Shown piece after piece: positions 3,870 through 64,000 of a DNA stretch of 64,000 nucleotides (its first letter is position 1; each line of letters begins with the position of its first letter). The notes below the pieces were generated by a model. The model was not told the DNA's origin, ran no database searches, and saw only the letters and a list, made by a program, of their open reading frames with translations. The translations under genes and the position numbers were made by a program. The stretch comes from a virus (taxonomy: Duplodnaviria > Caudoviricetes): IMG/VR virus record IMGVR_UViG_3300005330_000016, positions 13,983 to 77,982 of that record. One strand, given 5' to 3'.

Positions 3870-4198
3870 CAGGCGTTGGTGATCAAGAACGTAGCCGTGC
3901 CGGTCACCGTGCCGTCAAGCTCAGGGGCAGGGCGAGAAACGGTCATCAGCACAGCCGTATGGGTGTCCAGCGTTTCGATGCTGAGCGTTTGCTCTTGCCC
4001 AATCATCCCGTTGAGACTGCCCCACACCGACGCGTTGTCCATGACGATGTTGACGTTCAGTTTCAACGGACTTCTGCCGGCCAGGTCAACGTAGAAGTTG
4101 TCACCACCGGGGATCTCGGTCACCGCTACTCGCGCCTCACGCGACTCCTGAAAGCTATCAAGGATCACCGTGAACGCAACCCCGCCGAAGGTAGCCAT
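3869..4198 (-). CDS. Distal tail (Dit)-like / DNA-circularisation N-terminal-like tail protein
   Basis: MATFGGVAFTV...VTEIPGGDNFYVDLAGRSP pattern directly after the tape measure. Confidence 0.55.
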   Translation of the reverse strand: MATFGGVAFTVILDSFQESREARVAVTEIPGGDNFYVDLAGRSPLKLNVNIVMDNASVWGSLNGMIGQEQTLSIETLDTHTAVLMTVSRPAPELDGTVTGTATFLITNA

Positions 4199-33700: not shown

Positions 33701-34643
33701 ACGTATGGTTGCGGTGCGGTCCCTGGTCGTTACAGCACGCCTTCTCAGCGTTGTAGTGAACGTCCTCAAGCCAGATCAGCCCTCGACTGAGCGTCAGGTT
33801 GACGTTGTTGGCTACCGCGATGTGCTTCAACGTGGTCGCACCGGCGTCCGTGGCGTACACGTCGATCTGGTTCTGCGATATGTCTAGCTCTACGTGGTTC
33901 ATGGCACCGGGCGAGCCAGCGGTTACGCAATCGAGCACCTTGAAAGTGACCTGTCGCGGCCCGAAGCCGTTGGTGTCGTCCAGCACGTAGTCGCGCACCA
34001 CCGCTACCGAGTCCACCGTCCAGCGCTGCTTGTCCAAGTTGTTGCCGTTCGGACAGTAGCCGTAACCACCAGGCCCAACGCCCGAACCGAAGCGAACCGC
34101 TAAGCCGTGGCGCGGAAGTGTCTGCCAGCTATCAAAGTGGTTGAACGGAGCAGGGCTAGGCTTATCGCTCAGCCAGAACTCGGGCCATGCGTCGTGCGTG
34201 TTGAGCGTGTCGTTGCTCACGTCAAACACAACCTTGCCGGTCCTGCCCGCGAAGTCAAACGGTTGCTTCGGGTACATGGCAAGCGTCGTCACTTGATGGC
34301 CGTCGTTCGTCACTTCGCGCATCTGACCGTTGCAGATGATCACGTCGCCCGGTGGCTGTACGTGGTGCGAGCCATCACAAGCTTGAACGTCAGCAGCAAA
34401 CCAGCCGTTGAGCACACCCTGGCCGGCGTTGACGTTGCCCGTCAGCCGCGACACACCCCATACAACCGGGTTCAGATCGCCGCTCCGAGTGCCACCGTTC
34501 TGAGGCTGGTCGAACGTGTCGCAGAACGCGGCTTGCGTTAGCCCGCAGCCTGTTGCCTGGGCACTGTTGACGAACAGTTCGTCACGCCCGGCAAACACGC
34601 CAAGCAGCACAACAACAATCAGCGTGGGTACGGCTAGTCGCAT
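30756..34643 (-). CDS. Secreted multimodular glycoside hydrolase: two duplicated jelly-roll modules plus GH5 catalytic domain (start ATG 34643)
   Basis: Signal peptide; Pro/Thr linkers; GH5 motifs NVVRV..NED, ILDLH, FDLFNEP (acid/base), SWHTY, AGEIG (nucleophile), YLAWAW. Confidence 0.9.
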   Translation of the reverse strand: MRLAVPTLIVVVLLGVFAGRDELFVNSAQATGCGLTQAAFCDTFDQPQNGGTRSGDLNPVVWGVSRLTGNVNAGQGVLNGWFAADVQACDGSHHVQPPGDVIICNGQMREVTNDGHQVTTLAMYPKQPFDFAGRTGKVVFDVSNDTLNTHDAWPEFWLSDKPSPAPFNHFDSWQTLPRHGLAVRFGSGVGPGGYGYCPNGNNLDKQRWTVDSVAVVRDYVLDDTNGFGPRQVTFKVLDCVTAGSPGAMNHVELDISQNQIDVYATDAGATTLKHIAVANNVNLTLSRGLIWLEDVHYNAEKACCNDQGPHRNHTFAWDNVGFDGPFTYHDLSFDALDSLVPGNADGSIDLGKVAQANATTSWDVLGMPANPQAEAVRVLFNFQAPTSTPIALNVVVNGHAHAVPWPYPDAVWGTWHTLDVLVPITELVPGTNKVQIGGDQGMVVSNVNVVLVNAGASTPVSTATSTSTNTPVVTQTPTSTPVPASGACTFKLGGTAAFCEDGKASPGGRAGDLDDSRWSVGRVDGEYAPPNMMPFPSVAARCKAGNVSPDNDIFSCGSGFETALGAQNYALLSMRPRQAFDFTNRSGVISYNVDAATGSPQGWWHSVYVTQDPVPGAANTSQVSGMTPRNGVGVNFDGNNCSGNLGTSVRVNNAFTFNDYAETSVPFNNSVCIQTKAGSQNHIEIKLSTSRIEVWASDFSPDGVTFPNWRMIGSAPLSLNFSQGYVHFQHGQRAPGKYFNTPSSNYLWSGMSFDGPVVAQETAYVVPDALTPNGSKLNIGYGLNTPFNLGNVAGGSGKLTFSILYVNDSTHNSSTYAAKYRFNGGAWQSISAEYANALRCQAWGGNTDCNWSMGFSVPVTVPGGPTTVEIASDGVSAGYPPILANVELLTYGQTVTPIPTQTGTPVPVTGLHVVGNQLVDGSPVQLRGVSRSGGEYMCSSGSSDSFDGPTDQASIDAIKAWGVNVVRVSMNEDCWLGINGIPTNMTVDKYRQQVKAFVDLLSANGLYVILDLHWNAPGTQQSTGQMPMPDMDHTPAFWTSIAQTFGNYPNVLFDLFNEPFPDNNQDTTAAWTCLRDGGTCPGVSYQAAGMQTLVNTVRATGAKNVIMSPGILYAGGASRWLEFKPNDSTGNLAASWHTYKPNSNQCNTQACWDSVLAPIAASVPLIAGEIGQTDCASDYIVPLMTWLDQHKANYLAWAWDVYDCGGFPSLVSDYSGTPTNYGIGFRDHLLGVVPTATATNTPQPTQTPTVAPTATFTPTVAPTAQPIQVPAPPASGCFTLTAQDGVVDRSWKPCL

Positions 34644-34879
34644 TCTACGCCTTCTTCGGCCTTGTACTTCGCAGCCAAGGTCTTCGCGTAGAGCAGCCCG
34701 TCCAGAGCACGTTGGTCTTCTATAAGCATCTTGTGGGACGCGCATGTCGTCATACGCATGCCCATCAATCCGTACGTACAGTGCTCGCCTTCGCCCTTCT
34801 GAGTGCACCAGTAGGTGAGCACACGAGTAAGGGCTTGGCTTTCATCTGGCGTACCGTGCCAGGTCGTCGTTGCCACCAT
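34634..34879 (-). CDS. Hypothetical protein
   Basis: GGAGG RBS before ATG 34879. Confidence 0.55.
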   Translation of the reverse strand: MVATTTWHGTPDESQALTRVLTYWCTQKGEGEHCTYGLMGMRMTTCASHKMLIEDQRALDGLLYAKTLAAKYKAEEGVECD

Positions 34880-35006: not shown

Positions 35007-35081
<75 letters not shown>

Positions 35082-49084: not shown

Positions 49085-50212
49085 ATGACTACCAATCTCA
49101 TGGCCGCTTCCAATCAGTGGGCTTCGCGTCCCGACGATCAGCGGTTTCTGAATCTTGACGCGCTAAGCGATGCCGTTGCCCGCCGCCGCTCGCTGAGCCA
49201 CGACCGCGTACTGCGGCTGGACACGCTGAGCCTGGGCCACGACAGCACCAACAACAGGTTGTTCCTGAGCGGCCACAACGGTGCCGCCGTGAACTTCACC
49301 CATTGGAGCTTCGGGCAACTCGCCAGTGCTGTCGGCGCTCCGGCTGCTTACATGCGCAAACTGCCTGCCGCGTTGGCGGAAGTCAACATCGAGTATGGGC
49401 TGAAGTTCAACGACGCCGGGCGTGAGGAAGCGAAACTCCTGTATACCTATGGCGAAGACGGCCAGGCCGTTGGTGAAGCACGAGCCTTCACCGGACCAAC
49501 CTACGGTCGCATTTGGGATCAGCAGATCGTGGACGCCGTGCGACGCATGAACGACGACAACCGCTGGTCAGTGCCCACGCCGTTCAAGACGGCTGACGGC
49601 TCGCGCACCAACGACGGGTTTACCGTTGACAAGCGTTCGACCACGCTCTACGCGAGCGACCGCGACATCTTCATCTTCCTAGTGGACGAACGCAACCCGA
49701 TCCTGATTGACGATCAGGCTTACTTCCGGGGCTTCTACACGTGGAACTCGGAAGTTGGCAAGGCAACCTTCGGGCTGAGCACCTTCCTGTACTCCTACGT
49801 CTGCGCCAACCGCATCATTTGGGGTGCGGCGGAAGTCGAAGAGCTTCGCATCCGTCACACGTCATCCGCGCCTGATCGGTTCATCGAAGAGGCTACGCCA
49901 GCACTCGCAGCGCTGAGCGATTCATCGCCTCAACCGATCATCAACGCCATCCGCAAGGCGAAGGAAACCAAGATCGCCAACACACCGGCGGAAGTCGAGA
50001 AGTGGCTCGCTGGCAAGGGCTTCGGCAAATTTGAAGCCGCGACGGGCATCGCAATGGCGGCTCGTGGTGGCGACACCGGATCCGATGGCGACCCGACCAA
50101 CCTGTGGGACGTGATTCAGGGCGGCACGGCTGCGGCTCGCAGCATCACCCATCAGGACACACGCCTTGATCTGGAAAAGAAGTGGTCGGCACTTCTGAGT
50201 TCGGCCCGATAG
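49085..50212 (+). CDS. DUF932 family protein
   Basis: WASRPDDQRF, HWSFGQLAS, YASDRDIFIFL, RGFYTWNSEVG, CANRIIWG, RIRHT, TNLWD. Confidence 0.8.
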   Translation: MTTNLMAASNQWASRPDDQRFLNLDALSDAVARRRSLSHDRVLRLDTLSLGHDSTNNRLFLSGHNGAAVNFTHWSFGQLASAVGAPAAYMRKLPAALAEVNIEYGLKFNDAGREEAKLLYTYGEDGQAVGEARAFTGPTYGRIWDQQIVDAVRRMNDDNRWSVPTPFKTADGSRTNDGFTVDKRSTTLYASDRDIFIFLVDERNPILIDDQAYFRGFYTWNSEVGKATFGLSTFLYSYVCANRIIWGAAEVEELRIRHTSSAPDRFIEEATPALAALSDSSPQPIINAIRKAKETKIANTPAEVEKWLAGKGFGKFEAATGIAMAARGGDTGSDGDPTNLWDVIQGGTAAARSITHQDTRLDLEKKWSALLSSAR

Positions 50213-50524
50213 ATGGAAAGGGTAATCGGTGCTACCGTTCTGATCGTTGGCTGGGTAATTGTCGCAGCACTGCTCAGCGCATTCGTGATCGCCCAGTTAT
50301 GGGGGTGGTTCCTCACCCCCATCTCCGGCATACCAGTGCCGCCGACGGGCAACATCATCGGCCTATCGCTGCTCATCGGCTGGTTCACATCGCATACCGC
50401 ACCCGCAAAGGAAGGAGAATCGTTCTCGGTAACGGTGCTGGGTGGCGCGTTCACGTTCCTCGCCAGGGTCGCCATCACTCTGCTCATGGGCTTCATCGTC
50501 GCCAAGGCAATCGGTGTAGCGTGA
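50213..50524 (+). CDS. Membrane protein
   Basis: Three hydrophobic segments. Confidence 0.6.
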   Translation: MERVIGATVLIVGWVIVAALLSAFVIAQLWGWFLTPISGIPVPPTGNIIGLSLLIGWFTSHTAPAKEGESFSVTVLGGAFTFLARVAITLLMGFIVAKAIGVA

Positions 50525-50769
50525 ACCAACAGGGCTTATTCGACACAGAGCCGGCGGTAACCCCGCCGGTTCTCGTGGTGCGCTGTCCGTGTTGCCTTGG
50601 CGTGGCGGGCGCGAACTTCGGCAAGCTGGGCAAGACCGGCGTGTGCAACACTTGCGCCGTCTTCCACACTTGGAAACCAAAGTAAAGGAGAGCCTATGGC
50701 ATGAAAGTCTATTGACAGGTATTCGACCATGCTCTAGGATGGCTAGAGCACAACGTACAGGGGGTACGA

Positions 50770-51822
50770 ATGGTAGTAGCTTTTCGCAAGCGACCCGAGA
50801 AACGACCCGATCCGGGTGACGGGGCTGCGCTGTACAAGGATCTGCCGATCAGCGACATGTTCGTGGACTTTGAGTCTCAAGGCGGCTACGCCCGAGCACT
50901 CAACCCGACCCGCGTCAAGTACCTGACCGAGAACTTCAACGCCAACGCTATCGGCACTATCTACGTGAGCTTGCGCGACGACGGCTCGCTAGCCTTGATC
51001 GACGGCAACCACCGGGTCACGGCGGCAATCGCCAACGGTCTGACCACACTGGACGCCTACGTCTACGCCGACCTGACCATCGAGCAGGAAGCCGACCTGT
51101 ACCGCATGTTCGGTGACTACCTGAAGCAGCGACCCGTAGACCGCTTCCTGGCTGCACTCCGGGCCAACGATCCCGACGCGCATGCCATTGCCGCAGTGCT
51201 GGCCGAGTACGACCTGAAGGTTGTGGTGAGCACCAAGGGCCACGGTATCCACGCCGTAGAATCCGTACAGACCATCGTGAACAAGTACGACCTTCGGATG
51301 CTGCGGCTAGTGCTGGCCTTCCTTGTGGAAGCCTTCGGCAACAACGCGGTAGCGCTCAACGGATCCACGCTGAAGGGCGCGGCCATGTTCTTGGAGCGAT
51401 TCGCCAGCCATCCACAGTTCAACCACAAGCGGCTCATGACGCGCCTGAAGCGTGGCGGCTATGCCCAATACGAACAGCGCGCCAGGGCCGTCAGGGTGGC
51501 AGAACGTTGCGACGCCGCTTCAGCCAGCGGTCGGGCGTTCATGGCGATCCACGACTCCAACCTGGCCGACGCCAACAAGCTGGGTGCGTGGATTATCAAG
51601 TCCTACTCGCCCGAAGACAGGCAGCGGATGAAGACCCGGCTCACCACAATCGCCAGTCCGGCAGCCCTCAAGAAACAACGGACTGGTGCTACGGAGCGAG
51701 CGATGCTCACCGACTGCAAGACGTGCGGCGCACAGCCCTTGCAGCCCTGCCCCACGCCTGATGGCTACGCCCACAAAAGCCGCATCGAGCGCGCTCGCCA
51801 TCTGCGCCGGAAGGTAGCGTAG
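50770..51822 (+). CDS. ParB/Srx-like domain protein (DUF6551-like)
   Basis: YARAL, AIGTIYVSLR, LIDGNHRV, EQEADLY; own promoter TTGACA 50712/TAGGAT 50735. Confidence 0.75.
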   Translation: MVVAFRKRPEKRPDPGDGAALYKDLPISDMFVDFESQGGYARALNPTRVKYLTENFNANAIGTIYVSLRDDGSLALIDGNHRVTAAIANGLTTLDAYVYADLTIEQEADLYRMFGDYLKQRPVDRFLAALRANDPDAHAIAAVLAEYDLKVVVSTKGHGIHAVESVQTIVNKYDLRMLRLVLAFLVEAFGNNAVALNGSTLKGAAMFLERFASHPQFNHKRLMTRLKRGGYAQYEQRARAVRVAERCDAASASGRAFMAIHDSNLADANKLGAWIIKSYSPEDRQRMKTRLTTIASPAALKKQRTGATERAMLTDCKTCGAQPLQPCPTPDGYAHKSRIERARHLRRKVA

Positions 51823-52061
51823 GCATGTGCAGGCACCGGCGCAAACTACGCATCGAAGACGTAGAGCACGGTGGCTTCCAGATCATGTGCGCCGCGTGCC
51901 TGCTCGTCACCGACCGATGGCCGACTCTATTCAAGGCGTGGCTTGAGTGGCTACGCCTCAACCGGGAGGTAGTGCTGGCCGATTGACCCCGGCCAGGTCG
52001 TACACGAAGGGCAAAGACTGGCCGGGGGTGGTGCAACCCCCGGCACTTCAAGGGAGAGACA

Positions 52062-52760
52062 ATGACCAAAGCCGTAGACGATCTACAAGACGCCATCGAG
52101 AAGCACAACGAGCGGTCCATGAGCATGCGAGCAGCCAGAGATCGACTGGTCGCCATTCACTCACGACCGCTTGACTTCTGTTACGAGTGCGGCATGACCG
52201 CGCCGTGCGACGTGCGCCGCATGCTGGATGTGATCCAAGCCTACGAAGACGGCATGACGTGGATGACCACATGTACCCACTGCGCAAGTCTCTGGAACGA
52301 CAACTACAACCAGTACGAGCGGATCGAAGCCTTACTGCGGCAGATGGACCGGCTGGGGATCAAGGCCGACTCATGCTGACGCCGTATCCGTATTGCCCGT
52401 ACTTCAAGAAGAACCGCAAGCGCATGTACCCGACCTACAAGGTAGCTCTGCTGCACTGCTTCGACGGCATGCACGTGTTTACCTGCACTTCGACCAGGCT
52501 TCCTGAGCACTTCCACGTCGGGCATCCGTTCCGGGATAGCCGAGTATCGCGCCGTGTCTCGGAAGCGGAATACGAAGCCAGCCTATCTTCCCGGCTGCCG
52601 GGAGAGTTGGCATGAGCAACCTGTGGCAGTGGATCACAACGCCATTCATCCTTATCTCGCCACTCGGCCTGATCTTGGGGTTGGTGTTCTACTCCTTGGG
52701 GTCGTTCACCTACCACTTCATCGCCGAACTGGTGATCATCTGGAAACGCCGGCAATCTAG
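52062..52760 (+). other. Small hypothetical ORFs 52062-52379, 52373-52615, 52608-52760
   Basis: AAGGGAG RBS, coupled ORFs. Confidence 0.5.
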
Positions 52761-52815
52761 AAACTCGCCTTGAAACAGTATTGACAGGCGTATCGGGTGG
52801 TAGTAAGCTACGGGT

Positions 52816-53364
52816 ATGAACAACTCCACCCGATTCGGCCTCAACAATCGCGGCACCAAGGCTTGTCAGTTCTGCGGAAAGCTCTCATGGGCCAGCCGCC
52901 AGGACGAGACAGCGAACCGGGCCATGTGCCAGGGCTGCTTCGACGCAGCGGGCTACGAGAACCAGCATTCCGACACCAATGGCGAACACTACGGCAACAT
53001 CGAAACCCTCTGCCCAATCTGCTTCCCGGACCGCGAAGCTCGCCGGCTGGCGAAGGCCGCAGCGACAGTCGCCGGCTACCAGCAAGCAGCCGCCAAGCGA
53101 GCCGAGAAGGCCGTCGCCCGCGAGCAGGCCGCAGCCGCCAAGCAGGCTGACAAGAAGATCTGCCGGGGCACCTTCCTTGACCGACCGTGCGACCAGCGAG
53201 CCAGCAAAACCAGCGACTTCTGCTCTACCTGCCGACCGTACCATCCGCACACCGCAATCAACATGGCGAAGACAGACGCCGAATTCCTCACCCGCCAGGG
53301 CAAAGACGCCAAGAGCCTATGCGGTCTGTGCGGCAACCCGAAGGCTCATAGCCTTCACAACTAG
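52816..53364 (+). CDS. Leaderless multi-Zn-finger protein with Ala/Lys-rich linker
   Basis: CQFC, CQGC, CPIC, CSTC, CGLC; promoter TTGACA 52781/TAAGCT 52804. Confidence 0.65.
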   Translation: MNNSTRFGLNNRGTKACQFCGKLSWASRQDETANRAMCQGCFDAAGYENQHSDTNGEHYGNIETLCPICFPDREARRLAKAAATVAGYQQAAAKRAEKAVAREQAAAAKQADKKICRGTFLDRPCDQRASKTSDFCSTCRPYHPHTAINMAKTDAEFLTRQGKDAKSLCGLCGNPKAHSLHN

Positions 53365-53466
53365 GGGCCGAGTAGATCGACCGAACGCACCGGGGAGCGG
53401 GCCTTCCCGGTTGCGGATCGGGACGGAAAGTGCGACCCTTTCCCGGCTCCACCGAAGGGAGAGACA

Positions 53467-53874
53467 ATGGATCGCAGATCATTCCTCAAGGGACTAGGGA
53501 TCACCGCAGCCGCCGTGGCAGTGCCGAGCCTGGTGCTGCCGAGCAAGACGATTGCGCTGCCCGAGCCGAACCGTACGTTCTTCACGCCACCCGAGCAGGG
53601 CTGGCTACCTGGCGAATCGGCGCTCGAATACATCAAGAAGCAGGAAGCGGATCTCTACCGCATGTTCGGTGACTACTTGAAGCAGCGGCCCGGCGCAACG
53701 CACTACCGCATCACTGGTTTCTACGATCCCGACGTGCCGCTGGTAATGCCCGGCGAGACGGTGTTGCTGCGCATGCCTCGTGGTGGCCTTCCCGTACGAG
53801 CGATGGTCGTGGACAACGTGGCGCGAGATGCCGGCACCGTCCATCGGATTCTTGAAAAAGTATTGACACCTTAG
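53467..53874 (+). CDS. Twin-arginine (Tat) signal peptide protein
   Basis: MDRRSFLKGLGITAAAVAVPSLV. Confidence 0.7.
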   Translation: MDRRSFLKGLGITAAAVAVPSLVLPSKTIALPEPNRTFFTPPEQGWLPGESALEYIKKQEADLYRMFGDYLKQRPGATHYRITGFYDPDVPLVMPGETVLLRMPRGGLPVRAMVVDNVARDAGTVHRILEKVLTP

Positions 53875-53898
53875 CCGAGTGGCTGTAAGGTACTAGGT

Positions 53899-56800
53899 AT
53901 GAACAACTTCCGCTCCAATCGCAAGCCAGCCTGGGTCATCCTCCGCGAGAACGAAGAAGCCCGCCGAGACGCCGCTCGCTACGAAGCCACCCACAACATC
54001 GGCAATGTCATTGCCCAGCAGACCACCGTCGCCCGCACGAGCGAGCAGTACCAGTCGGCAAAGGCTGACGTAATCAAGGCAGTCGCCCAGTTCATGAGCG
54101 GCCAGCCGACCATCGAAGAGCTAAAGGCTCTCGGCGGCTACACCGTAATCATCGGGCGATACATCGACTCAGTTACCGCTGGCAAGACCTACACCGTGAC
54201 CGGCCATCAGGTAGCCCTGGCGAGCCTACTACGCACCGAGTGGCTGGACATCCGCAATGCGGCCATCAAGGCCGCGCAGGGCTAAGGGGAATCCAATCAT
54301 GACCAGCAAGCTCGATCTGTGGGCATTCGACCAGATCTGCCCGCCTAAGAGAAAGTGCGCCTTCTGTGGTGAGCCGGCCACCAGAAAGTGCGCCTTCTGT
54401 GGTGAGCCGGCCACCAAGATCATCGAAGGCTACGATCCGAAGGGCGTCTGCGCGGAGTGCCTGGAGGAACTGGAGTCATGACAGCGCAAGAGCAAGGCAT
54501 CCTTGCGCTGTTCCTGTTTCTCTCTGCGATTGCCTTCCTGCCGGTACTAGTGCTGGCCTTTCGAATCTGGTGGAAGTGGCTGATGGAATCAATTACGTGT
54601 GACCTTGACAGGATCCGCTGGCGATGACCGCTTGGGTTGACTTTCAGGACTACCTGGCTAATCTGCCCGAGCCTACGCGATGGGAACGGCTGCGCTGGGG
54701 CGTGGGTTGGAAGTGGGAAACCATCACCAGGGAGCTACGCAGCGCACCGTACAACGTGCGCAGGAGCATCGCAGTAGTCAGGGCGTACTGGGGTACCTAC
54801 GACTTCGACTGGACCGCTCTAGGCGTGCTCATGCGCTTCCAGATCGGTCGTACGCGGCAGACCATCCAGAAGAACGGTCACCTGATGAACTCCGAGCGCG
54901 TCTGCCGCGACATGCTCATCTGCGAAACGCTACTCACGCGGCTGATGGACGAGTCGTATTACGAGATCGCAGACGCCCGCTACCCGGATCGGGGGGCACG
55001 CTGGGCCAGGTTCATCAATCAGCTAGAGGCTCAGGACATGGCGATGCTCATGGACAAGCTGAAGCACATGAGGGAATGGTGGGACTGATGGAAGCCAAGG
55101 CTACGCACATGGCCGTTGGCGCGTACACCCACGCCGATACGTCGCTCAACCCCCACGGCGTACCGAGCGTGCTGGGCGAGCACGCCATGATCATGGTGAG
55201 CTACGCGCCTGACCCGAAGTGCCCAGGCGTGTGCCTGCGCGTGATGGTCGCAGACGTGAGCGTTGAGCTACAGATCCGCCCCGACCAGGCTACAGGCATC
55301 GCAGAGCTACTTCTCGCGGCTGCTCGCATCCTTGAGTATGCCGACGTGCCAATCACGTTCAACGAAGACCCCGGCAAGGCGTACGACTATCCATGACTGA
55401 CGCACTCCAACTGCTCTGCGCCTGTGGCGATATGTTCAGCATTGGGCTAGGCGAACGTGTTGAGCGGATCGAAGACGCTAAGCCGTGGGTGGTACCGCAG
55501 CCGAAGACGTTTACCAAGTCGCTCGCCGCGTGGTTTGACGAGCACCAGGCTTGCAGCAGTGGCCGCTTTCCGTGCAAGCCGGCGATCATGGTGAGTGTTC
55601 ACGATTAGTTGTTGACACGTCAAGCGTGGCGGGTGTAAGGTGACGGTATGGAACACAAGGTAGTCAGCAAGACAGCTGTTGACCGCACGCCGATCATCCG
55701 AGTCGAGTGCTCCTGCGGTTACTACCAGCAGAAGACCGTTATGAACTTCTTTGAGTCACTGTGGCTCAAAGACACCCAGCACATGTTGTGGTTCGAGCAG
55801 CAGCCGGCGTAATGCCGGCACTGCTAGATTGCTTGTTGACAGATCAGGCGAACGGGTGTAAGGTACGAAGTATGAAGAACACGATCTGCACAGGCAGTCG
55901 CACCCAGGTCAAGTCCGGCAAGTGCCCGGTCTGCAAGACCGAGCAGCAGTCACACCCGTCTGGCCGACTGTACACCCACATGGCACCACGGATCTGCTCT
56001 TCCCTCTCTTACCAGAAGGGCCGGGGCGGCGCGATGTGGCCGACTCCCTGCACAGCCAAGGCGAAGCCTGGCACCAAGTTCTGCGGGCGGCACGCATGAG
56101 CAACATCTTTGGCTGGAGCTACCCGCCCGGCGCGGCGAACGACCCTAACGCGCCGTACAACCAAGACGAAGGCTGGACGGAAGACTACTGTCCGACATGC
56201 CTGGAGTCGTACTCGCCCGAGTGGCTGGCAATCCTTGAGGGTGGCGAAGAGCCGCCTAGCCCGTACCCGCTGTGCAGCGTGGCGTGCAACGACGCAGAGG
56301 AAGACGAGCCTGACCCGCTGGAGTGGGACTGGTGACGCGCGGCCTATACGTCATGCTGGTCATCGTAGCAATAGCCGCGTGGGCGTTCTGGATGCTCAGC
56401 CAGCCGGTGAGTGCCGACCTGTCGCTGAACCCGAACAACCACGCGCCTGAAGCAATATGGGGTATCCGATGAAAGAAGTATGGTTGCTCACGAGCGGAAC
56501 ATATAGCGACTACAGCGTTGAGTGTGCGTGTGCCACGGAAGAGCTAGCTGACGCGCTATGCGAACGCGAGAACGCTGCACGTCGCCAAGACTTCCGTGAC
56601 GAGTTACAGGTCGAGCGAATCCCGCTGCTCGAAGAAATGCCCGAGCCGGGCCACATCGAGTGGGCGTCTACCGTATGGATGTGGCCCGACATGACCATTC
56701 GCAATCAGATCACGTGGTCATACCCAATAAATCCGTGGCCGGACGAGCAGGTAGACATCGAGCAGGGAGAGTTTTCCAACGGGCAGGGCTTCACGGCTCG

Positions 56801-59229
56801 TGGTCCTGACCGCGACACCGTTGAGCGGCTGCGGGCCGAGTGGGTCGCCGGCAAGATCAAGTCATGAACCACGATTGGAAAGCACTGTCCGATAGGGGCT
56901 GGTGGACGACGTACAGGTGCGCCCGCTGTGGTTGGGCCAGCATGGACAAGTCAGGCCCGATGCCGTGTACGGATGGGCCGAACCCCTGGTGCCCATCTAA
57001 GCTCTCGCCGCGTGAGTGCCCGCATACGACCACCCACGCACATCTCACGCTACCGTCTGTATGGGGCACGCCGTTAGGAATGGTTCAGGCGATGGATAAC
57101 CTGCGCGCCGGCAAGATCCAAAACTAGTTGTTGACAGACCAAGCCAGCGGGTGTACGGTAGCAAGTATGAACAACACCGCTATAGTGCTCGAAGGACTGA
57201 ACGACTACAGCGACCAACTCGAAGACGCGGTACTACCGGGTCTGATCGTTGCCATTGCTTCGCAAGAGCCGGCGTGGATGCGTACCGCAGCCCGCTTCTT
57301 CGATGACGGCATCGACTGGGCGTACGAAGACTGGAAGATGGACCGCGAGTGGGCCGAAGCCGAACGCGAGTTTGACGAGACGATGACACGGATGGACGAC
57401 GACGGCGCGCCCATCCACCGTGACCACTGGGCTTGGTCCTGGGGGCTAGAGTGATCAAGGTCTACGCCTGGACAAGCAGGCGAAGTGACTGCCCGCCAGC
57501 ACCTAATGGCGGGCAGCAGGTACGCTACGTGGTGGCCGCACGATCATGGAAAGCCGCTGTAGCCACCATACCCGGCGAATCGCTCAATCAAGCCATGCGC
57601 TTCGGCAGTACGACCGGGAACGACATAGAGCTAGACCTGGCCCTGGCAAATCCAGGCCAGGCATTCTGGAAGCCGTTAGACGGACACGTCTGGAGACGTG
57701 CGCTGTGAGTGGACTTACCTGGCAGACCGGGCATGGTGCCCAGCGAGAGGCTGGAGACGGGGTGTGCGTGATCCCTTCATGAAACACCCGGTGCCAGGTA
57801 AGAACCGATGAGTATCTCGGTTACGTTGCATCCATTCAAGCTACCTAACGATGGCGAAGACCGGTGCGCGTTCGTCTATAGAGACGCTCAGGTCAAGCTG
57901 CGCTGCAATGTATCGAGCAGCGGTCACAGCATGGACGAGCCGTGCTGCCTGCCCGAGAACTGTCCAAACATGCCCGAGTGGAACGGCAAGCGAGTCGTGG
58001 GCTGGGGTGGCAATCTCGACGCGCCGCACAACTGCTGCCTCTGCTGGGAAGATGCATGAAACACCCGGTGCCAGGTAAGAACTCATGATTACTAGCGTAG
58101 CTAGAGAGTATTACGACAGGGCCATAGCCCAGCGCAACGCCTTGCGCAGCGAGATTGAAGACCTGAAGCAGGCGAACGATGAACTCAGGGCATTGCTTGC
58201 AGAGCGCCACCAGTTTCCAGACTACCCCGGCCCAGCCGAAGGCCAAGTTAGTACAGCCGAAGACTGGGATAATCAGCACTCCTGGCGTGAGAAGTGGAAT
58301 GACCTAAACGCTCGTATCGGTGAGGCTCTAGAGCCATGAGCTTCGGCTATTGGTGTCGCCCCTGCAAGGCGTGGTGGTCGGCTGAGCTAGATTCCGATAC
58401 CGCAGACCACGTACGCCGAGTTCAGCTACGGTGGCCGTACGCAGTCTCGCCGGTGATACGCCCAGGCCAACCGATCTGCCCGCAATGCGGGCTGGAGTCA
58501 ACCCAGGATCTACCGACAGAAGGAATGCCATGAACGACCTAGACGGGTGGTACGTCCAGATTAGTCCCGATGGACACGTGACGAGCATGAAAGGCGTCTA
58601 CATATTTGATAGTGACGAGCCGCCTAACCCGGCAGCATTCACAACCACGTTAGCGATTCCAGCAACGGACGAAGCTCTCGCCGCTCGTCTTCGAGCGCTG
58701 GGTTGGGTGCAGGAAGCCATGCCATGAGCCACGATCACATACGCATCAACGGTTGCTATCGGTGCGTCTTGCCAGAAGGCGAACTGCAAGTAACCGATAT
58801 GGCAGCTACGCTTAGGAAGCTAGCCCTGGAGCTACAGACCGAGCGCGATATGCGGATCGACACCGACCACGCATGTGATGCCCTGCGCGCCGAGAACGAG
58901 CGGCTGCGGGCTGAGAACGCGTTGCTGCTTGAAGCTATAGATAGCTCGCTGCCTAGATGAGAAGATCAACCAAACCACCGCCATCCTGACGAATGCGGAA
59001 CCGAATGCAAGTGCCAGGCATGAGATACGCGAAGCACCACGACCGAACCAACACGTTGCACATCCTGCCGACCGCAGATATGGGTTCGGCCTACACAACC
59101 GCTTACTGCGGGCTGTCGCCACGGTACGCCTGGGCCACGATCTTCACTGGCTTGCCATCCGTCGGCTGGAACATCTGCCCGAAGTGCTCACGGCGGGCCT
59201 CACCCAACTTTCGCCTTTCTCCCCCCTGA
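53899..59229 (+). other. Array of small early ORFs (e.g. 53899-54285, 54299-54481, 54624-55088, 55088-55396, 55393-55608, 55872-56099, 56096-56335, 56469-56867, 56864-57127, 57167-57454, 57451-57708, 57808-58059, 58085-58339, 58336-58533, 58530-58727, 58724-58960, 59029-59229)
   Basis: Coupled ORFs; leaderless promoters with TTGACA at 53863, 55612, 55836, 57131. Confidence 0.65.
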
Positions 59230-60852
59230 CCCCCGGCGACGATTAGAGTTCACGGCCCAGCTAGCCGAAGAGTTCTTCTCACGAGTCAGCAAGCGTAGAT
59301 GGGTCAGCTTCGAACAATCCTTGTGGAAGCAGATACCAGCGATGTGGTCTACCGTGATCTTCGTCCCATCCGGGTTTCGTCCAATAGGCCCATACGCTAA
59401 CTCCCACCTCAGCCGATGAACCGACTGCCAGCCTCCATCCAGCCACACCCGACCATAGCCGTCCTTGTCATGACTACCAGCCCAACGCTCACACGATCCC
59501 TCAACGTACAGGTTGTTCGCTATCTCCGGAATCGTCCCACTTGGTGGCGGTAGCATCGGCTTCTCGTCATAGTGAACCGGCTCAGCATCACCCGTGCCCT
59601 TCCACCGTGGAACCTGCACGATCTCGTACCGAACTTCCTCTGTAACTTCCTCTGCAATCTCAAACCGCACTCCATCCGTGACAGAGGAACGTACTTTCTT
59701 GGGCTTCGGGAACTTGACAAGCTTACGTACTTTGCCGTGGCTCAGCCAAGCCGAGAAGTCGGGCATAGAGCCTGGGTCTAGCTTGTCTTCGTGGATCTTC
59801 AGCCGGTCGGCTGCGAGCTTCTGTAGCTTGCCTGTCTCGGGTGCGAAATAGATCCTAGTAGCAGAGTTCGAGAGGATCGCATCGTTCAGGTCAGACTCGG
59901 CTTGCGTCAAGGCGTCTACCGTGATGAACCGTCTGCGGCCAGCACGGAAGAAAGGATCGGCTAGTGCGATACGGTCATCCAACTGGCCCGCTTCCTCAAA
60001 GACCAGCCTGAACCCGCCAGGCACTACGTCGGCACACCGGCGAGCTTCCGCTAACCCGAGCGCCACGATGTCACCGACCAGGCCCGGATGCTTCCACGAG
60101 TCGTTGTCTAGCACCACCGTCTTGCCCTGGCGTAGCAACTCGGCTACGTCCGTACCGCCAGCCTCAATCGAGTGGCCGAACTGCAACGCCGTGGATAGGA
60201 ACCGCTCTACCCAACCTTCGCACGCCCGCTTCAGGGATGCGTTCTGTGCTACCGCGTCTTGTAGTAGCTCGCCTATCGTCTGCATGGAACGCGGCTGGCC
60301 GGTCATGTCCATTGCCAGGATCACCTGAGCCGTGGCCCGCCGAGCCGCCATCTTCCACGCGCCCGTACCGCCTGATGGAAACACCTCCGTCAGCATCTCT
60401 GCTACTTCAGTGGGTGAGCCAATCAGGAAGTCCACCGGTGGCGATACGCACGCCGTCCAGATAAAGTCCGCCTGCGCTCGCAGCGGGTCGGACAGGTCGG
60501 GTGTCACGATCAGCATGGGCCGTGAGCCGTCACAGCGAATCGTGGCTACCGCCGTGCTCTTGCCTGCACCCGTTGGCCCTAGCCAGAGACAGTGCGGCTT
60601 GCGGTCGCGGTTGATCTCTACGCCGTCTATCTTCATCAGGTCGCGGGGCGGCTTGATCGTCCACCACAGCCGAGACAATAGCGGGGTGTTCGTAGGTCTT
60701 TTCTGGTCGGTTTTCTGGCCGGTTTTCGGGTCGGCTTTCTTCCTGCCAAGCATGCCGACGATAAGCCCTGCTGCCACCATAGAGATGAGTAGCAGCGACT
60801 CGGGATCGGGATCTACGTTGAGTAGATCAGTCGCCCACGACGGTATCAACAC
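59200..60852 (-). CDS. VirD4/TrwB-like coupling ATPase with C-terminal HNH domain (start probably GTG 60852)
   Basis: N-terminal TM, GPTGAGKS, LVFEEAG, RAGRRRFITVDALTQ, LSNSATRIYF; C-terminus CERW..DKDGYG..SVHRLRWEL..VDH..C..C..HLRLLTREKN. Confidence 0.8.
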   Translation of the reverse strand: MLIPSWATDLLNVDPDPESLLLISMVAAGLIVGMLGRKKADPKTGQKTDQKRPTNTPLLSRLWWTIKPPRDLMKIDGVEINRDRKPHCLWLGPTGAGKSTAVATIRCDGSRPMLIVTPDLSDPLRAQADFIWTACVSPPVDFLIGSPTEVAEMLTEVFPSGGTGAWKMAARRATAQVILAMDMTGQPRSMQTIGELLQDAVAQNASLKRACEGWVERFLSTALQFGHSIEAGGTDVAELLRQGKTVVLDNDSWKHPGLVGDIVALGLAEARRCADVVPGGFRLVFEEAGQLDDRIALADPFFRAGRRRFITVDALTQAESDLNDAILSNSATRIYFAPETGKLQKLAADRLKIHEDKLDPGSMPDFSAWLSHGKVRKLVKFPKPKKVRSSVTDGVRFEIAEEVTEEVRYEIVQVPRWKGTGDAEPVHYDEKPMLPPPSGTIPEIANNLYVEGSCERWAGSHDKDGYGRVWLDGGWQSVHRLRWELAYGPIGRNPDGTKITVDHIAGICFHKDCSKLTHLRLLTREKNSSASWAVNSNRRRGSGGRKAKVG

Positions 60853-60973
60853 TGTACGCCAGCACGCCGACCAGCAGCACTGCCGCAACCACGGCAGCAG
60901 CCAGCCAGCCCAGGACGAGTACCGCCCCGACTAGCACACCTAGCTTGAGTATCAACCAAACCATGTAACGCAC
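60827..60973 (-). CDS. Small hydrophobic membrane protein (48 aa, not in track)
   Basis: Manual translation MRYMVWLILKLGVLVGAVLVLGWLAAAVVAAVLLVGVLAYSVDTVVGD. Confidence 0.5.
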   Translation of the reverse strand: MRYMVWLILKLGVLVGAVLVLGWLAAAVVAAVLLVGVLAYSVDTVVGD

Positions 60974-60988
60974 GATAGCACGCTTTCC

Positions 60989-62602
60989 TCATGCTGCCAA
61001 GCGCTCCCTTGGATCTGTATTGATCAATACGTACTGAGACGGGTCTGCTTGGACGTTTACCGGCACCCACATGCCGTTGACGTAGATCAACGCCTGCCCG
61101 CGACCGGCACCGCGTAGAAACTGTCGGGCCGGCTGACTCAGCTTGGTAGCTACCGCTAGCCCGCCCAGGTCGCGGTCTTCTTGTTGTAGGAAGATCCTGA
61201 TCGGTGCGTTGTCGTAGACCGCCTTGGCATCGCGCAGTAGCTCTTCAGCCTGCTGCGTAGCAATCCACAACGCCAGGTAGAACTTGCGACCACGCCGTGC
61301 CATCTCTTCGATGAACTCGGCTAGCTCTGGCCGGCGGATCAGTGACCATAGCTCATCAAGCACTAGCAGCCTGGGCCGTGGGTTGCGCCGAGCCATGTCC
61401 CAAAAGTTGGTAACGAACTCCTTCAGCCATCCCGCTCGTTCTGATTCGGTGTTGCCCTGGATCCTGTGGACGGTGACGCCTGGAATGCCGCCGTACTCTG
61501 AGTCCGACTGCTCCACTACGTGCGTCTCAACGCCCAGCAACCCGAGCATAAGTAGCTTGAGTAGAAAGCTCTTGCCACTGCCTACCGAACCGGTGACCAG
61601 CCCGCTAAAGCTACGCAGGCTCTCGTCAAACGGATCGAGCTTCACGAGCATGCCGTTCGACGTGCCGATGGGCGCGCCACCCTTGTGGTTCACCGTGGTC
61701 GGCTGGAAGATCCCGGTACTCGCCACGCTTGTGCAGTCCAGCGTACGCCACGCGCCAAGTAGATCCATCTTGCCGGTCAGCCCGGTCGCCTGTAGCCCCG
61801 AGTCTTGCTCGAACTGAGCCTCTCGCACGTCGGCCAGAGACAGCCCTAGCCTGTAGGCTACCGCCTTGGTGCGCTCAACGGCTTCAGCCCGCTCCTTGGC
61901 CCTTACAGTGAGCGCTACGGCTACCTTGGCCGGTCTGTCCGTCCCGGCGATCAGGTTGCGCCGCACGCTCTCGGCGTCACGAGCGCCCAGGTCATTCGCC
62001 GCGTCGGGCTTGTTCTCGTTAGCGTCGTTCTGCCAGGCCGCTTGCTTGCGCAGGTAACGGGCGAACCGCTGCGGCTCCTGCGGGCTGATGTGGACGCCGA
62101 TGTCTACCACTTCGTCAGCGCCAAGTGCCTGCCCGAGCCAGCCCGGTGCCGCCTCTCGCGGCCAACGCCGTACGACCAGCGTTGAGCACCACTCGCCACG
62201 CTCGTCCTGTGCGACCGTTCGCCGGAGCGTCTTGTAGCGCACCGCGTCCGGGGCTGTGAATGGATCCGAGCAGGTTAGCCCGATGCCCGCCAGTGACTCC
62301 CTCAGTAGCTCAACTTCACCCTGCGTGTAGCCCGGCGCGACCGCGTACCAACGTCGCTGAATCGTCGGCGGGTTCTTCCAATCGTAGATCGAATGCTCTA
62401 CCGCCCGCGCCTGACTAACGAGTTGAGTCTGGTGCCCCAGCCCCATGAGAACGCGGGCCAACGCCCGCATCTGATCGTGCCGCTGATCGAACGAAGACAT
62501 AGGATCGTTCGTCGTAGGGCTGAGTTCGAGCGCGAGAGGCACGTATCCCTCCATACGGGCCAGTAGACCAGCCGCCAGAAGCGCGCCGATACCACCACCC
62601 AC
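60989..62602 (-). CDS. virB4: VirB4/TraE/ConE-like conjugation ATPase
   Basis: GSVGSGKSFLLK, LLVLDELW, MARRGRKFYLALWIATQQ, IFLQQ, GRGQALI. Confidence 0.85.
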   Translation of the reverse strand: MGGGIGALLAAGLLARMEGYVPLALELSPTTNDPMSSFDQRHDQMRALARVLMGLGHQTQLVSQARAVEHSIYDWKNPPTIQRRWYAVAPGYTQGEVELLRESLAGIGLTCSDPFTAPDAVRYKTLRRTVAQDERGEWCSTLVVRRWPREAAPGWLGQALGADEVVDIGVHISPQEPQRFARYLRKQAAWQNDANENKPDAANDLGARDAESVRRNLIAGTDRPAKVAVALTVRAKERAEAVERTKAVAYRLGLSLADVREAQFEQDSGLQATGLTGKMDLLGAWRTLDCTSVASTGIFQPTTVNHKGGAPIGTSNGMLVKLDPFDESLRSFSGLVTGSVGSGKSFLLKLLMLGLLGVETHVVEQSDSEYGGIPGVTVHRIQGNTESERAGWLKEFVTNFWDMARRNPRPRLLVLDELWSLIRRPELAEFIEEMARRGRKFYLALWIATQQAEELLRDAKAVYDNAPIRIFLQQEDRDLGGLAVATKLSQPARQFLRGAGRGQALIYVNGMWVPVNVQADPSQYVLINTDPRERLAA

Positions 62603-62880
62603 TCATGAGCGCGCCGCTGGCCCAGCCGCGCCCGTAGCGTCGTGGCGATGCTGCCAATGAATCCCACATCACCGGCTGGCTCGCCCGTCAAGACTTCAAC
62701 GGCTAGCGGCACCATGACCACCGCGAACCACTGCCACGGTATGCCGTAACTGTCGCTGATCCAGTACGCGCCAAGCAGAGCGAACAAGACCAGCCCGATA
62801 TCACGAGCCGCATCCTGCCGCTCTAGCTCCGTGGGAATGATGACGAGCGCTGGCCGCTCGTCCTGACTAGTGGATGGCAC
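62398..62880 (-). CDS. PrgI/VirB3-like membrane protein (start GTG 62880)
   Basis: VIIPTELE then two TM segments, directly upstream of VirB4. Confidence 0.6.
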   Translation of the reverse strand: MPSTSQDERPALVIIPTELERQDAARDIGLVLFALLGAYWISDSYGIPWQWFAVVMVPLAVEVLTGEPAGDVGFIGSIATTLRARLGQRRAHEWVVVSARFWRLVYWPVWRDTCLSRSNSALRRTILCLRSISGTIRCGRWPAFSWGWGTRLNSLVRRGR

Positions 62881-63088
62881 CCTGAATCGCCGCCGCAATC
62901 CGTGGTGCGCCCAGGACAACCGCGCCGCCGATCAGAACCCAGCGCGCGCTACGGGTCGCGCCCTGATGATCGTCCGTGATCCACTTGTAGCCGACGAACG
63001 CAATGGCGATGACCATGAGAGCCAGCCAGAAGTTGCCCTTCATGGCGTCGTAGATGTTGGTCAGCAGACCAGTGATCGGGTCTAACAT
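62867..63088 (-). CDS. VirB2/TrbC-like pilin
   Basis: 73 aa, two TM helices: FWLALMVIAIAFVGYKW and WVLIGGAVVLGAPRI. Confidence 0.7.
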   Translation of the reverse strand: MLDPITGLLTNIYDAMKGNFWLALMVIAIAFVGYKWITDDHQGATRSARWVLIGGAVVLGAPRIAAAIQGAIH

Positions 63089-63185
63089 GTTGCGCTACCT
63101 CAGTAGGGGAACAGCGCGTGAACGATGATCGCCACGCTCATGCCGATGGCCGCACACTCCGCAATCAAGATAAAGTGGCCGATAC

Positions 63186-63749
63186 TCATGCCTCCCCCGG
63201 CGACGGCTGCACTTGCGATGCCGCCCTAGCCCGTCCCAAGAACGCCGCGTACGAGCCTGTGTGACCCGCGCCGCAGCTTGCCAGATACGTTGACCAGGCA
63301 CACCACCCCTGACGCCCCTTGATGTAATAGGCGGCTTGGACGTTGCGCCACGGATCAATCAACGCCGCATGCCCTCCGAACTGCGGCCACCATCCCGAGT
63401 TGATCTGCCACAACCCCAGGTCGCGGCTCTTGTCGAAGTTCTCACCGCTTAGTGCCGCCGGGTTGCCCGAGCCGTTCTCGGCAATGCTGATAGCCACCGC
63501 TAGGATGGCGTCGTCGCCGCCGAAGCCCGCCATACGCGCTAGCTGGTAGCGCTGAGCGTCACTCACCACACCCTGGATAGGAGCCAGGTTGCTTACGTCT
63601 ACAGCCGGTTGCCCCTGATCGACCACAACGGGTGGCGGTACCGCGTTAGCGCCTTTGAGCCAAAACGCAGCCCACGGCGAACTCAGATAGCCCATGATCG
63701 GTGACATGACCAGCAGGAACGCCGTGAGCGCGCCGACGATCCACCACAT
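63186..63749 (-). CDS. Lytic transglycosylase (SLT-like, VirB1 role) with N-terminal membrane anchor
   Basis: AVAISIAENG (catalytic Glu), DLGLWQIN, DPWRNVQAAYYI, WCAWSTY. Confidence 0.85.
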   Translation of the reverse strand: MWWIVGALTAFLLVMSPIMGYLSSPWAAFWLKGANAVPPPVVVDQGQPAVDVSNLAPIQGVVSDAQRYQLARMAGFGGDDAILAVAISIAENGSGNPAALSGENFDKSRDLGLWQINSGWWPQFGGHAALIDPWRNVQAAYYIKGRQGWCAWSTYLASCGAGHTGSYAAFLGRARAASQVQPSPGEA

Positions 63750-64000
63750 CAGATGCGCGCTACCACACGCCGTACAACGACCGCAGCAGCCTTTGCCGTG
63801 CGACTAGTACCGCTAGATTGACCAAACCGTGAAGACAGGATGCCAGGCATCTTCCGAGCGAGCAGCAATATCGACAGGCTCAGGATCGCGCCGGCGATTC
63901 CGCCCGAAACAACACCGAGCGCCATAGCCAGCCGTAGCGTGATGACTACCATGATCTGCGCGAACAGCGTGCCGGTCGCCATGCTTGTGTAGGCACTGGC
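63749..64000 (-). CDS. C-terminal part of VirB6/TrbL-like polytopic membrane protein (truncated by window)
   Basis: FAQIMVVITLRLA..ILSLSILLLARKMPGIL pattern; position upstream of the SLT gene. Confidence 0.55.
   Translation of the reverse strand, partial: ASAYTSMATGTLFAQIMVVITLRLAMALGVVSGGIAGAILSLSILLLARKMPGILSSRFGQSSGTSRTAKAAAVVVRRVVARI

Follow-up and report, generated by a model that had tools for sequence, protein, structure and literature searches.

In review, conjugation and transfer by phages or phage-plasmids are treated as alternatives (PMC12282955). Several described elements nonetheless link a phage genome to conjugative transfer. Tandems in which a phage is joined to an ICE (integrative and conjugative element) consist of two complete joined elements, "rather than a hybrid element" (PMC13651849); p1002-1 is a cointegrate, a "conjugative phage-plasmid" (10.1101/2025.03.14.643293); and for Phi1207.3, a "conjugative prophage," conjugal transfer is reported (PMC4260502). 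In addition, gp155 and gp156 of Bacillus phage G have been published as "TraC-like and TraD-like," with a function that is "entirely unknown" (PMC12484599). Here, we describe a module of eight proteins resembling a minimal type IV secretion system (T4SS), encoded on the minus strand at positions 59200-64000 of a 64,000-nucleotide stretch of DNA (the window) from a tailed phage. The window corresponds to positions 13983-77982 of the 77,982-bp IMG/VR record IMGVR_UViG_3300005330_000016 (G000) and runs to its final base, and the module therefore lies at the extreme end of the contig. We consider it very probable that the module is a T4SS-derived machine and almost certain that it is physically part of the phage genome.

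Components of the module

The original prediction, which was made from the sequence alone, had read this region as the conjugation module of a tailed phage. The eight minus-strand open reading frames (ORFs) that it proposed are present where it placed them. They are listed below with lengths in amino acids (aa); L026 is a related 35-kb contig from ENA ERZ27265541.

59200-60888, minus strand: ATPase of the VirD4/TrwB fold with a C-terminal HNH domain, 562 aa, likely start at 60852
60827-60973, minus strand: hydrophobic ORF of 48 aa, placed between the ATPase genes and predicted as a gene in L026 too
60989-62602, minus strand: short, divergent VirB4-like ATPase, full ORF of 537 aa, likely start at 62554 or 62542 giving 517-521 aa
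62398-62919, minus strand: conserved membrane protein in the VirB3 position, likely true start a GTG near 62871
62867-63088, minus strand: TrbC/VirB2-like pilin, a two-helix hairpin of 73 aa without a signal peptide
63100-63189, minus strand: 29-aa wholly hydrophobic ORF with a 4-nt overlap with the SLT stop, called as a gene in L026
63186-63749, minus strand: VirB1-like SLT_3 lytic transglycosylase/lysozyme-like wall hydrolase with an N-terminal membrane anchor
63749-64000, minus strand: gene for a polytopic TrbL/VirB6-like membrane protein, truncated where the contig ends so that only the C-terminal 83 codons are present

Family and structure searches bear out the labels given earlier to the VirB6-like protein, the SLT hydrolase, and the VirB2 pilin. 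The VirB6-like gene is complete in L026 (5160-6110), where it encodes 316 aa, and the fragment in the window aligns with polytopic proteins of 313-419 aa from relatives. In the profile search for this family (465 representatives), TrbL_4 was matched by 35 of 60 aligned members (best, 1.6e-16) and TrbL by 20 of the 60. Moreover, when an AlphaFold2 model (predicted local distance difference test [pLDDT], 87) was compared with 48,161 chains by VIA-align, the top match was TrwI/VirB6 of R388 (7o3v_F; Z score, 10.0 over 225 residues). For a helical protein this score is modest, yet it ranked first. Foldseek returned no match to the same model at an E value of ≤0.001, with TrwI among the weak rows only.

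The wall hydrolase matches Pfam SLT_3 at 61.3 bits (cutoff, 27) and has a transmembrane (TM) segment at residues 1-23; homologues that are 40-56% identical occupy the same position in relatives. The pilin, which has two TM segments, matches Pfam TrbC at 46.7 bits (cutoff, 27.9) and T4SS_pilin at 21 bits, and seven relatives share this family of ~70-aa pilins with a basic loop between the helices.

The PrgI/VirB3-like label that had been attached to 62398-62919 did not survive: no Pfam, PHROG, NCBIfam, or PADLOC family matched the product, and the name is positional only. The protein has two hydrophobic segments, and in relatives the gene directly upstream of the VirB4-like one encodes a homologue of 146-159 aa (30-40% identical). 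Its frame overlaps the 5' end of the VirB4-like ORF by ~100-200 nt (window 62398-62602), with an R/W-rich tail, while in relatives the two genes abut (L009 and L010) or overlap by ~28 nt (L024). The overlap could be real, or it could reflect an extended tail or a frameshift; VirB3-VirB4 fusions occur elsewhere. Among relatives, the position of the 29-aa ORF is taken by a TM-like small ORF in L007 and L014 and by nonhydrophobic small ORFs in L004, L024, and L025, and that of the 48-aa ORF by TM ORFs of 47-52 aa in L008, L012, and L007. Neither position shows sequence conservation.

Two ATPases and a fused nuclease

The earlier VirB4 label also stands, for a protein that is short and divergent. 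Pfam P-loop_TraG (31.5 bits) and AAA_10 (28.1 bits) match the product of 60989-62602, both barely over the gathering cutoff, and a profile of 23 homologues matched the Thermoanaerobacter VirB4 structure 4ag5 at an E value of 1.5e-19. The best NCBIfam evidence comes from models of F-type TraC (2e-21; 75 bits) and CD1110 VirB4 (1e-20; 73 bits), with the Mbov_0397 VirB4 model matching over the N-domain (9e-13). The structural TM-score against DUF87/P-loop_TraG clusters in the Atlas was 0.78. The protein has more than 100 homologues; in the 23-member family alignment, neither Walker A (GKS) nor Walker B (DE) varies.

Distant versions of the module in L012 (5009-11827) and L014 (4961-12088) contain a full-length VirB4-like gene (762-781 aa), from versions of which the short VirB4 of this phage family may be derived. 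One of the two has an NlpC/P60 hydrolase replacing SLT_3, and one adjoins ParA/ParB.

The product of 59200-60888 begins with a TM helix at its N terminus, followed by an ATPase domain that contains an all-helical insertion, by a linker that is disordered (residues 400-450), and by an HNH domain (residues ~450-550) that is beta-beta-alpha in an AlphaFold2 model built from 26 homologues (pLDDT, 78.8). The HNH domain is matched by PHROG 826 (E = 3.8e-13) and Pfam HNH_3 (E = 6e-4). This nuclease is fused to the coupling-protein-like ATPase in all 26 aligned homologues, in which Walker A, Walker B, and the HNH residues H515, H530, and N539 are invariant; for both ATPases and the HNH domain, the catalytic motifs are kept across 23-26 homologues at 40-75% identity. 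Three tandem 12-nt repeats (window 60699-60734) encode a K/T/Q-rich linker right after the TM helix. In L004 (11743-13524) and L025 (11638-13542), the coupling-protein homologue is divergent: hhalign relates its ATPase part to that of the module at 98-99.7%, but its C-terminal 200-300 residues are unrelated to HNH and without a Pfam match, an alternative fused domain.

The TM anchor and the TrwB fold are compatible with the VirD4-like label that had been predicted for this ATPase, and Foldseek placed the model at a TM-score of 0.54-0.59 to TrwB. However, over residues 81-398 the modeled fold was equally close to VirB4 (4ag5; Z score, 22.9), DndH (22.9), TrwB (1e9r; 22.5), and HerA (20.1), and by itself such a predicted fold does not tell these clades apart. 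Pfam families for the type IV coupling protein (T4CP) gave zero matches, and a PDB profile search by sequence returned nothing significant; only the fold search gave matches. In the model, the membrane anchor and helical insertion fit a coupling protein. Language-model neighbors in the Atlas were all of the TrwB_AAD_bind/T4SS-DNA_transf type (0.87), which we take as a lead only.

The closeness of the T4CP-like domain to HerA and DndH, which rivals its closeness to TrwB (Z scores, 20.1-22.9), is also what one would expect of prophage-borne exclusion or defense, in which a membrane-anchored HerA/FtsK-type translocase-nuclease and helper membrane proteins degrade the incoming DNA of rival phages or plasmids. 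ATPase-nuclease pairs and accessory slots beside integrase and immunity genes are typical of defense systems, the module occupies such a slot, and the virulent-looking megaphage G carries a related set too. PADLOC, in turn, matched the two ATPases to HerA/mad8, albeit weakly, at the superfamily level and at no more than 55 bits, compared with the 75 and 73 bits obtained with T4SS families. It returned nothing for the other module genes, which fit none of its system models. Defense would also leave unexplained why five T4SS-type parts (VirB1-, VirB2-, VirB4-, VirB6-, and T4CP-like) are kept in a conserved order, since it does not need them. We regard a defensive role as distinctly unlikely.

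The module as part of a phage genome

The evidence that the T4SS-like module belongs to the phage comes first from L026, one of the contigs on which the T4CP-HNH protein occurs with identical sequence. The last 14.8 kb of G000 (77982-63182) aligns with L026 at 99.3% identity, and G000 410-38 aligns with the other end of L026 at 92.8%; the first gene at the start of G000 is 99% identical in protein to its L026 counterpart. L026 thus matches both ends of G000 and bridges them via ~5.5 kb, which yields a circular map of ~83 kb. The bridge supplies the rest of the VirB6-like gene and lysis-cassette-like genes (a small LGFP-like protein, 273- and 276-aa proteins, and three small TM proteins), with no integrase, relaxase, or host gene on record. 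In L026, the sequence past 64 kb, to which the original prediction had pointed as a check, is phage DNA.

G000 and L026 differ at 108 positions, all within the SLT and VirB6-like genes (window 63186-64000 versus L026 5856-6673), while the other 14 kb is identical. In the SLT gene, 37 of the differences are synonymous and 38 nonsynonymous. The pattern suggests a hotspot of recombination or diversification in these two parts of the module, both of which face the envelope. Because the differences are confined to these genes, strain microdiversity best explains why the G000 contig breaks there.

Second, the module recurs in other phage genomes. Although scanning IMG/VR viral contigs with a single protein found nothing, an alignment-based scan found four module loci. 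Two records, G003 (61,298 bp) and G004 (64,960 bp), have 127-bp terminal overlaps, are thus circular assemblies, and are rated 100% complete; both combine the large terminase TerL with the module, a co-occurrence that had been proposed as a check. G003 shares ~31 colinear structural genes with G000 (TerL, 72%; portal, 71%) and has a tyrosine integrase ~2.4 kb upstream of its VirB6-like gene, whereas in G004 the TerL is unrelated (phrog_38) and the same module is accompanied by a primase and an endolysin-like gene. The TerL match in G003 (3484-4965) contains one in-frame TGA, for which recoding, a sequencing error, or the presence of an intron or intein might account.

The same gene order also lies amid phage genes in all long contigs examined (L004, L007, L012, L014, L024, and L025; 57-105 kb), with temperate-phage genes within 10 kb of the module in these metagenomic sequences. 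Its neighbors there are an integrase, a helix-turn-helix (HTH) repressor, ParB, Phage_ABA_S, and/or a GH25/LGFP lysin; in L007, they are HNH and giant fiber-like genes. Tyrosine integrases occur in most relatives, and ParA/ParB in L014 and L015. Module proteins are ~50% identical between phages regardless of the similarity of the structural genes, and therefore the module moves among phage backbones by mosaic exchange.

Third, neither tetranucleotide composition nor an intervening integrase or host gene marks a boundary at the module. The tetranucleotide profile of the module (r = 0.94) falls inside the 0.88-0.96 range of other windows, so that the compositional check suggested near 59.2 kb revealed no break. 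On the phage side, the last module gene overlaps by 30 bp, in a convergent arrangement, the final ORF of the early block (58993-59229, plus strand), which is kept and called as a gene in L026. This overlap is real, as had been noted, and no integrase or host gene intervenes, in agreement with the earlier reading; there are zero PF00589 matches across the 78-kb record. The tetranucleotide CTAG is frequent in the module, as had been claimed (20 occurrences), but not "as in the phage genes": its density there is 4.2 per kb, near expectation, compared with 2.1-2.6 per kb in the rest of the phage.

This twofold CTAG density is among the observations that would favor an independent ICE, or an integrative and mobilizable element, next to or inside the phage; T4SS genes normally reside on ICEs and plasmids, and the contig ends inside the module. 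Nevertheless, the contig break is attributed to microdiversity in the SLT and VirB6-like genes, composition is uniform, L026 has phage DNA on both sides of the module with neither integrase nor relaxase in the gap, other long phage contigs fill the same slot, and two circular genomes with TerL carry the module. Among the relatives examined, the module never occurs as a separate element with integrase plus relaxase. In PLSDB, no relative exceeds 27% identity. When the VirB4-like and T4CP-HNH alignments were used for pattern scans of 185,579 GTDB species genomes, no confirmed relative emerged, a weak negative, since exact conserved peptides were needed; blastn against 50,697 phage records found no close relative. 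We rejected the adjacent-ICE candidate, an alternative that the original prediction had itself raised, on account of the L026 bridge, the circular G003 and G004, and the lack of flanking repeats and of integrase or relaxase matches of its own, and we consider an independent element of either kind very improbable.

An insulated slot between lysis and lysogeny functions

In L026, a strong intrinsic terminator (15-bp stem and T-run) follows the late and lysis-like genes. Beyond it, a ~63-aa Cro/CI-type HTH gene (434 Cro; E = 1.3e-5) is divergent from the VirB6-like gene, with a promoter-like site between the two; in L012, a small HTH_17 gene is likewise divergent from the TrbL_3 gene. An 86-aa Cys-rich (zinc-ribbon-like) gene lies on the opposite strand between the terminator and the Cro-like gene (L026 4582-4842). 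The terminator and divergent regulator indicate that the module is its own transcription unit in a slot between lysis and lysogeny functions. ImmR-type control of ICE transfer genes resembles this layout.

Proximity to lysis genes raises the idea that the module serves the infection cycle within one cell, through envelope crossing at entry or exit or as an aid to lysis. In L026, L025, and L012 it comes immediately after a lysis cassette, and in G004 after an endolysin-like gene; it includes a wall hydrolase, and the lytic-looking phage G has the set as well. Even so, the terminator and Cro-like regulator uncouple the module from the late/lysis operon, and we know of no lysis system whose components include two large translocase ATPases and a pilin. 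Also, gp155 and gp156 are not in the phage G virion proteome (PMC12484599). A role confined to the single infected cell is, in our view, improbable.

A possible route for phage DNA between cells

We propose that the module would act as a T4SS-derived DNA-translocation machine, integral to a tailed-phage genome and separately regulated within it. The VirB6-like channel protein, the SLT_3 hydrolase, the VirB2-like hairpin, the small membrane proteins, and the VirB4-like assembly ATPase would assemble into a channel. The C-terminal HNH domain of the coupling-like ATPase would cut or nick the DNA substrate, and it may thereby take the place of a relaxase. The outcome would be a conjugation-like spread in which the phage exports its DNA, on contact, into a neighboring cell, with no virion needed. 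Gene content, homology, folds, conservation, and placement in the phage genome are observed here; what we infer is that the parts form a channel, that this channel carries DNA and in which direction, and what the HNH domain does. DNA is favored as the substrate because all 26 aligned homologues join a nuclease to the coupling ATPase and because an HNH gene directly follows the ATPases in phage G.

The steps of this proposal differ in strength. That the module moves DNA is somewhat probable. That it transfers the phage genome between cells is possible but less likely than not. As a whole, a T4SS-derived translocation module, most likely for conjugation-like export of phage DNA, is our best explanation, held tentatively and at just under an even chance; among the readings considered here, conjugation-like self-transfer would be the leading mechanism.

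Several observations weigh against this proposal. Under a CONJScan-style rule, a conjugative T4SS comprises mating-pair formation (MPF) genes, a T4CP, and a relaxase. The module provides the VirB4-family ATPase (the product of 60989-62602) and accessory MPF proteins (VirB6, VirB2 pilin, and VirB1 hydrolase). However, the relaxase families PF03432, PF02486, PF08751, PF13814, and PF01076 (Relaxase, Rep_trans, TrwC, Replic_Relax, and Mob_Pre) were unmatched at E ≤ 0.1 in G000, G002, G003, and G004, two of which are circular and complete; MOBH, MOBC, and MOBB were not searched. The absence of a visible relaxase that had been remarked upon earlier thus extends to these four records, and by this rule the module would not count as a conjugative system. 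TcpC (PF12642) was not found in the four records either, although VirB8 (PF04335) was not searched, and the "minimal mating set" that the original prediction had described is accordingly incomplete. Repeats resembling an origin of transfer or attachment sites between 58.5 and 64 kb amount to chance-level short repeats and the coding 12-nt triplet repeat only.

Other points concern the proteins and their setting. The scores of the VirB4-like protein with the TraC, CD1110, and Mbov_0397 models are far under the equivalog cutoffs, and all of the curated cutoffs were missed; at ~520 aa, the protein is one-third shorter than canonical VirB4 (~800 aa). The coupling ATPases of L004 and L025 have another C terminus in place of the HNH domain. 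The lysis/lysogeny slot is also where prophages keep defense and conversion genes, and the cultured megaphage G has a homologous set though conjugation has no obvious use there. Canonical conjugation is not established, because five relaxase families and TcpC were unmatched. Thus, of the earlier claim that a tailed phage carries its own T4SS module, the placement in the phage genome is upheld, while working conjugation, and with it a "dual-route" element, is plausible but not established.

The missing relaxase match would also fit a nonconjugative T4SS used for lysogenic conversion, whether for protein secretion, for DNA release or uptake (Ced-, ComB-, or GGI-like), or as an adhesive pilus, with no transfer of the phage genome. 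T4SSs without a relaxase are usually effector or DNA uptake/release systems; there is a weak NCBIfam CedB match (8e-6), and the module, with a regulator of its own, is set apart from the late operon. On the other hand, no effector candidates are conserved beside the module, which is only ~6 kb and without known uptake partners, and the nuclease fusion indicates DNA over protein. We therefore judge conversion to be unlikely.

The phage and its probable host

G000 is classed as "linear," and CheckV estimates it to be 100% complete; the ends of the contig neither overlap nor share a terminal repeat. The phage is tailed and siphovirus-like (Caudoviricetes), with TerL, portal, and tape measure genes in the window. 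The late region, on the minus strand, takes up most of the record and includes two DNA methyltransferases in the window and Laminin_G/Kelch fiber-like proteins in the first 14 kb of the record. G000 also encodes an AAA_25 helicase-like protein. This protein, the ParB-like protein listed below, and the lack of an integrase bear on whether the phage is a phage-plasmid, a framing to be set against the tyrosine integrases of most relatives. The main landmarks in the window outside the module are as follows.

4199-6592, minus strand: tape measure (late region)
24578-26086, minus strand: portal (late region)
28848-30341, minus strand: TerL (late region)
49085-59229, plus strand: early block, including a ParB-like/DUF6551 protein
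58993-59229, plus strand: last ORF of the early block, convergent with the module

Between TerL and tRNA-Met (35007-35081), the window encodes a 1350-aa protein with a GH5 cellulase domain (30756-34808; 129 bits), and L007 has a similar cellulase-domain protein of 1028 aa. A GH5 domain is unexpected in a phage protein so large.

The host is probably a member of the Actinomycetota, an assignment in which we have moderate confidence. It is suggested by weak Pfam LGFP-repeat matches beside lysins in three relatives (L012/L013, L024, and L025), by an Rpf-type transglycosylase domain in L025, and by the nearest Atlas cluster, which comes from Actinomycetota. Labels from metagenome-assembled genomes conflict, with one naming Mycobacterium sp. 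and another Gemmatimonadota. A host search with TerL and portal was uninformative; the nearest cultured phages were 25-46% identical, with unrelated hosts.

Implications

With a T4SS-derived module conserved as a built-in part of phage genomes, the line between phage transfer and conjugation would become less sharp. If the module transfers DNA, a virus could bypass receptor specificity; if the full proposal is true, it would mean virion-independent and receptor-independent spread of viruses in bacteria, with a relaxase-independent, HNH-primed form of DNA export. If the module instead proves to be a defense or conversion device, it would still be a new use of T4SS parts. Annotation is affected as well: classifiers that separate plasmids from viruses and count conjugation genes toward the plasmid side will mislabel contigs of this kind.

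In its most general form, the idea is that a 60-83-kb phage family, perhaps together with megaphage G, uses a relaxase-free channel with an HNH-bearing or HNH-recruiting ATPase to pass genomes between touching cells. We offer this version as speculation that is somewhat unlikely to hold in full.

Comparison with known systems

Among the closest known systems are the minimal conjugative T4SSs of monoderm bacteria, exemplified by ICEBs1, the Tcp system of pCW3, and the Prg/Pcf system of pCF10. Like them, the phage module combines a VirB1-like hydrolase, a VirB4-like ATPase, a VirB6-like protein, a TM-anchored T4CP-like ATPase, and small membrane proteins in a tightly coupled operon with no outer-membrane core genes. 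Unlike them, it lacks relaxase and TcpC matches in the families searched, its VirB4 has ~520 rather than ~800 aa, it has a VirB2/TrbC-type pilin and an HNH domain on the T4CP, and it sits inside a virus.

In the phage-ICE tandems, p1002-1, and Phi1207.3, as proposed for our locus, a phage genome is linked to conjugative transfer. In the tandems and p1002-1, each part has its own integrase or relaxase plus a full-size transfer region, whereas here a 6-kb module without a relaxase match is built in and conserved across a phage family. We found no description in the literature of a T4SS-like module built into a tailed-phage family; most subscription journals were outside the search, and a prior report is possible.

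Relaxase-free DNA transport has precedents in archaeal Ced/Ted import and in actinomycete TraB double-stranded DNA conjugation. Each is driven by an ATPase of the HerA/FtsK type that works with a VirB6-like or pilin-like protein; they differ from our proposal in host domain and in the direction of transport.

Among isolated phages, only Bacillus phage G has a relative of the VirB4-like protein by tblastn (identity, ~24%). It lies in a row formed by gp153, gp154 (small), gp155 ("VirB-like"), gp156 (a large ATPase), and gp157 (an HNH endonuclease). By profile comparison, gp153 is VirB6-like (E = 1.9e-34), and gp155 (549 aa) matches the short VirB4-like profile over its full length (E = 3.7e-63). 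The C terminus of gp150 is weakly pilin-like (E = 1e-7 against 16 proteins only). Module profiles gave no support for gp154, gp156, or gp157, and gp156 has no PDB sequence match. The order is thus the same as in our module: VirB6-like protein, small protein, short VirB4-like ATPase, second ATPase, and HNH. The differences are that the HNH is a separate gene and not a fusion, that gp156 is not relatable to the coupling ATPase of the module (hhalign probability, <5%), that the stretch has no SLT_3 gene, and that phage G, a myovirus that infects a Bacillota host, has a genome of 497 kb. The lytic look of phage G makes it less certain that the role is restricted to conjugation by prophages; direct cell-to-cell passage of viral DNA would fit lytic-looking and integrase-bearing phages alike.

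The phage G set means that T4SS-type genes in a phage are already on record and, since these homologous genes belong to a phage in culture, that their function can be tested at the bench. What is new here is the full module, with its pilin, VirB6, hydrolase, and regulator; the fusion of the HNH nuclease to the coupling ATPase; and the spread of the module through a family of midsized, mostly integrase-bearing phages.

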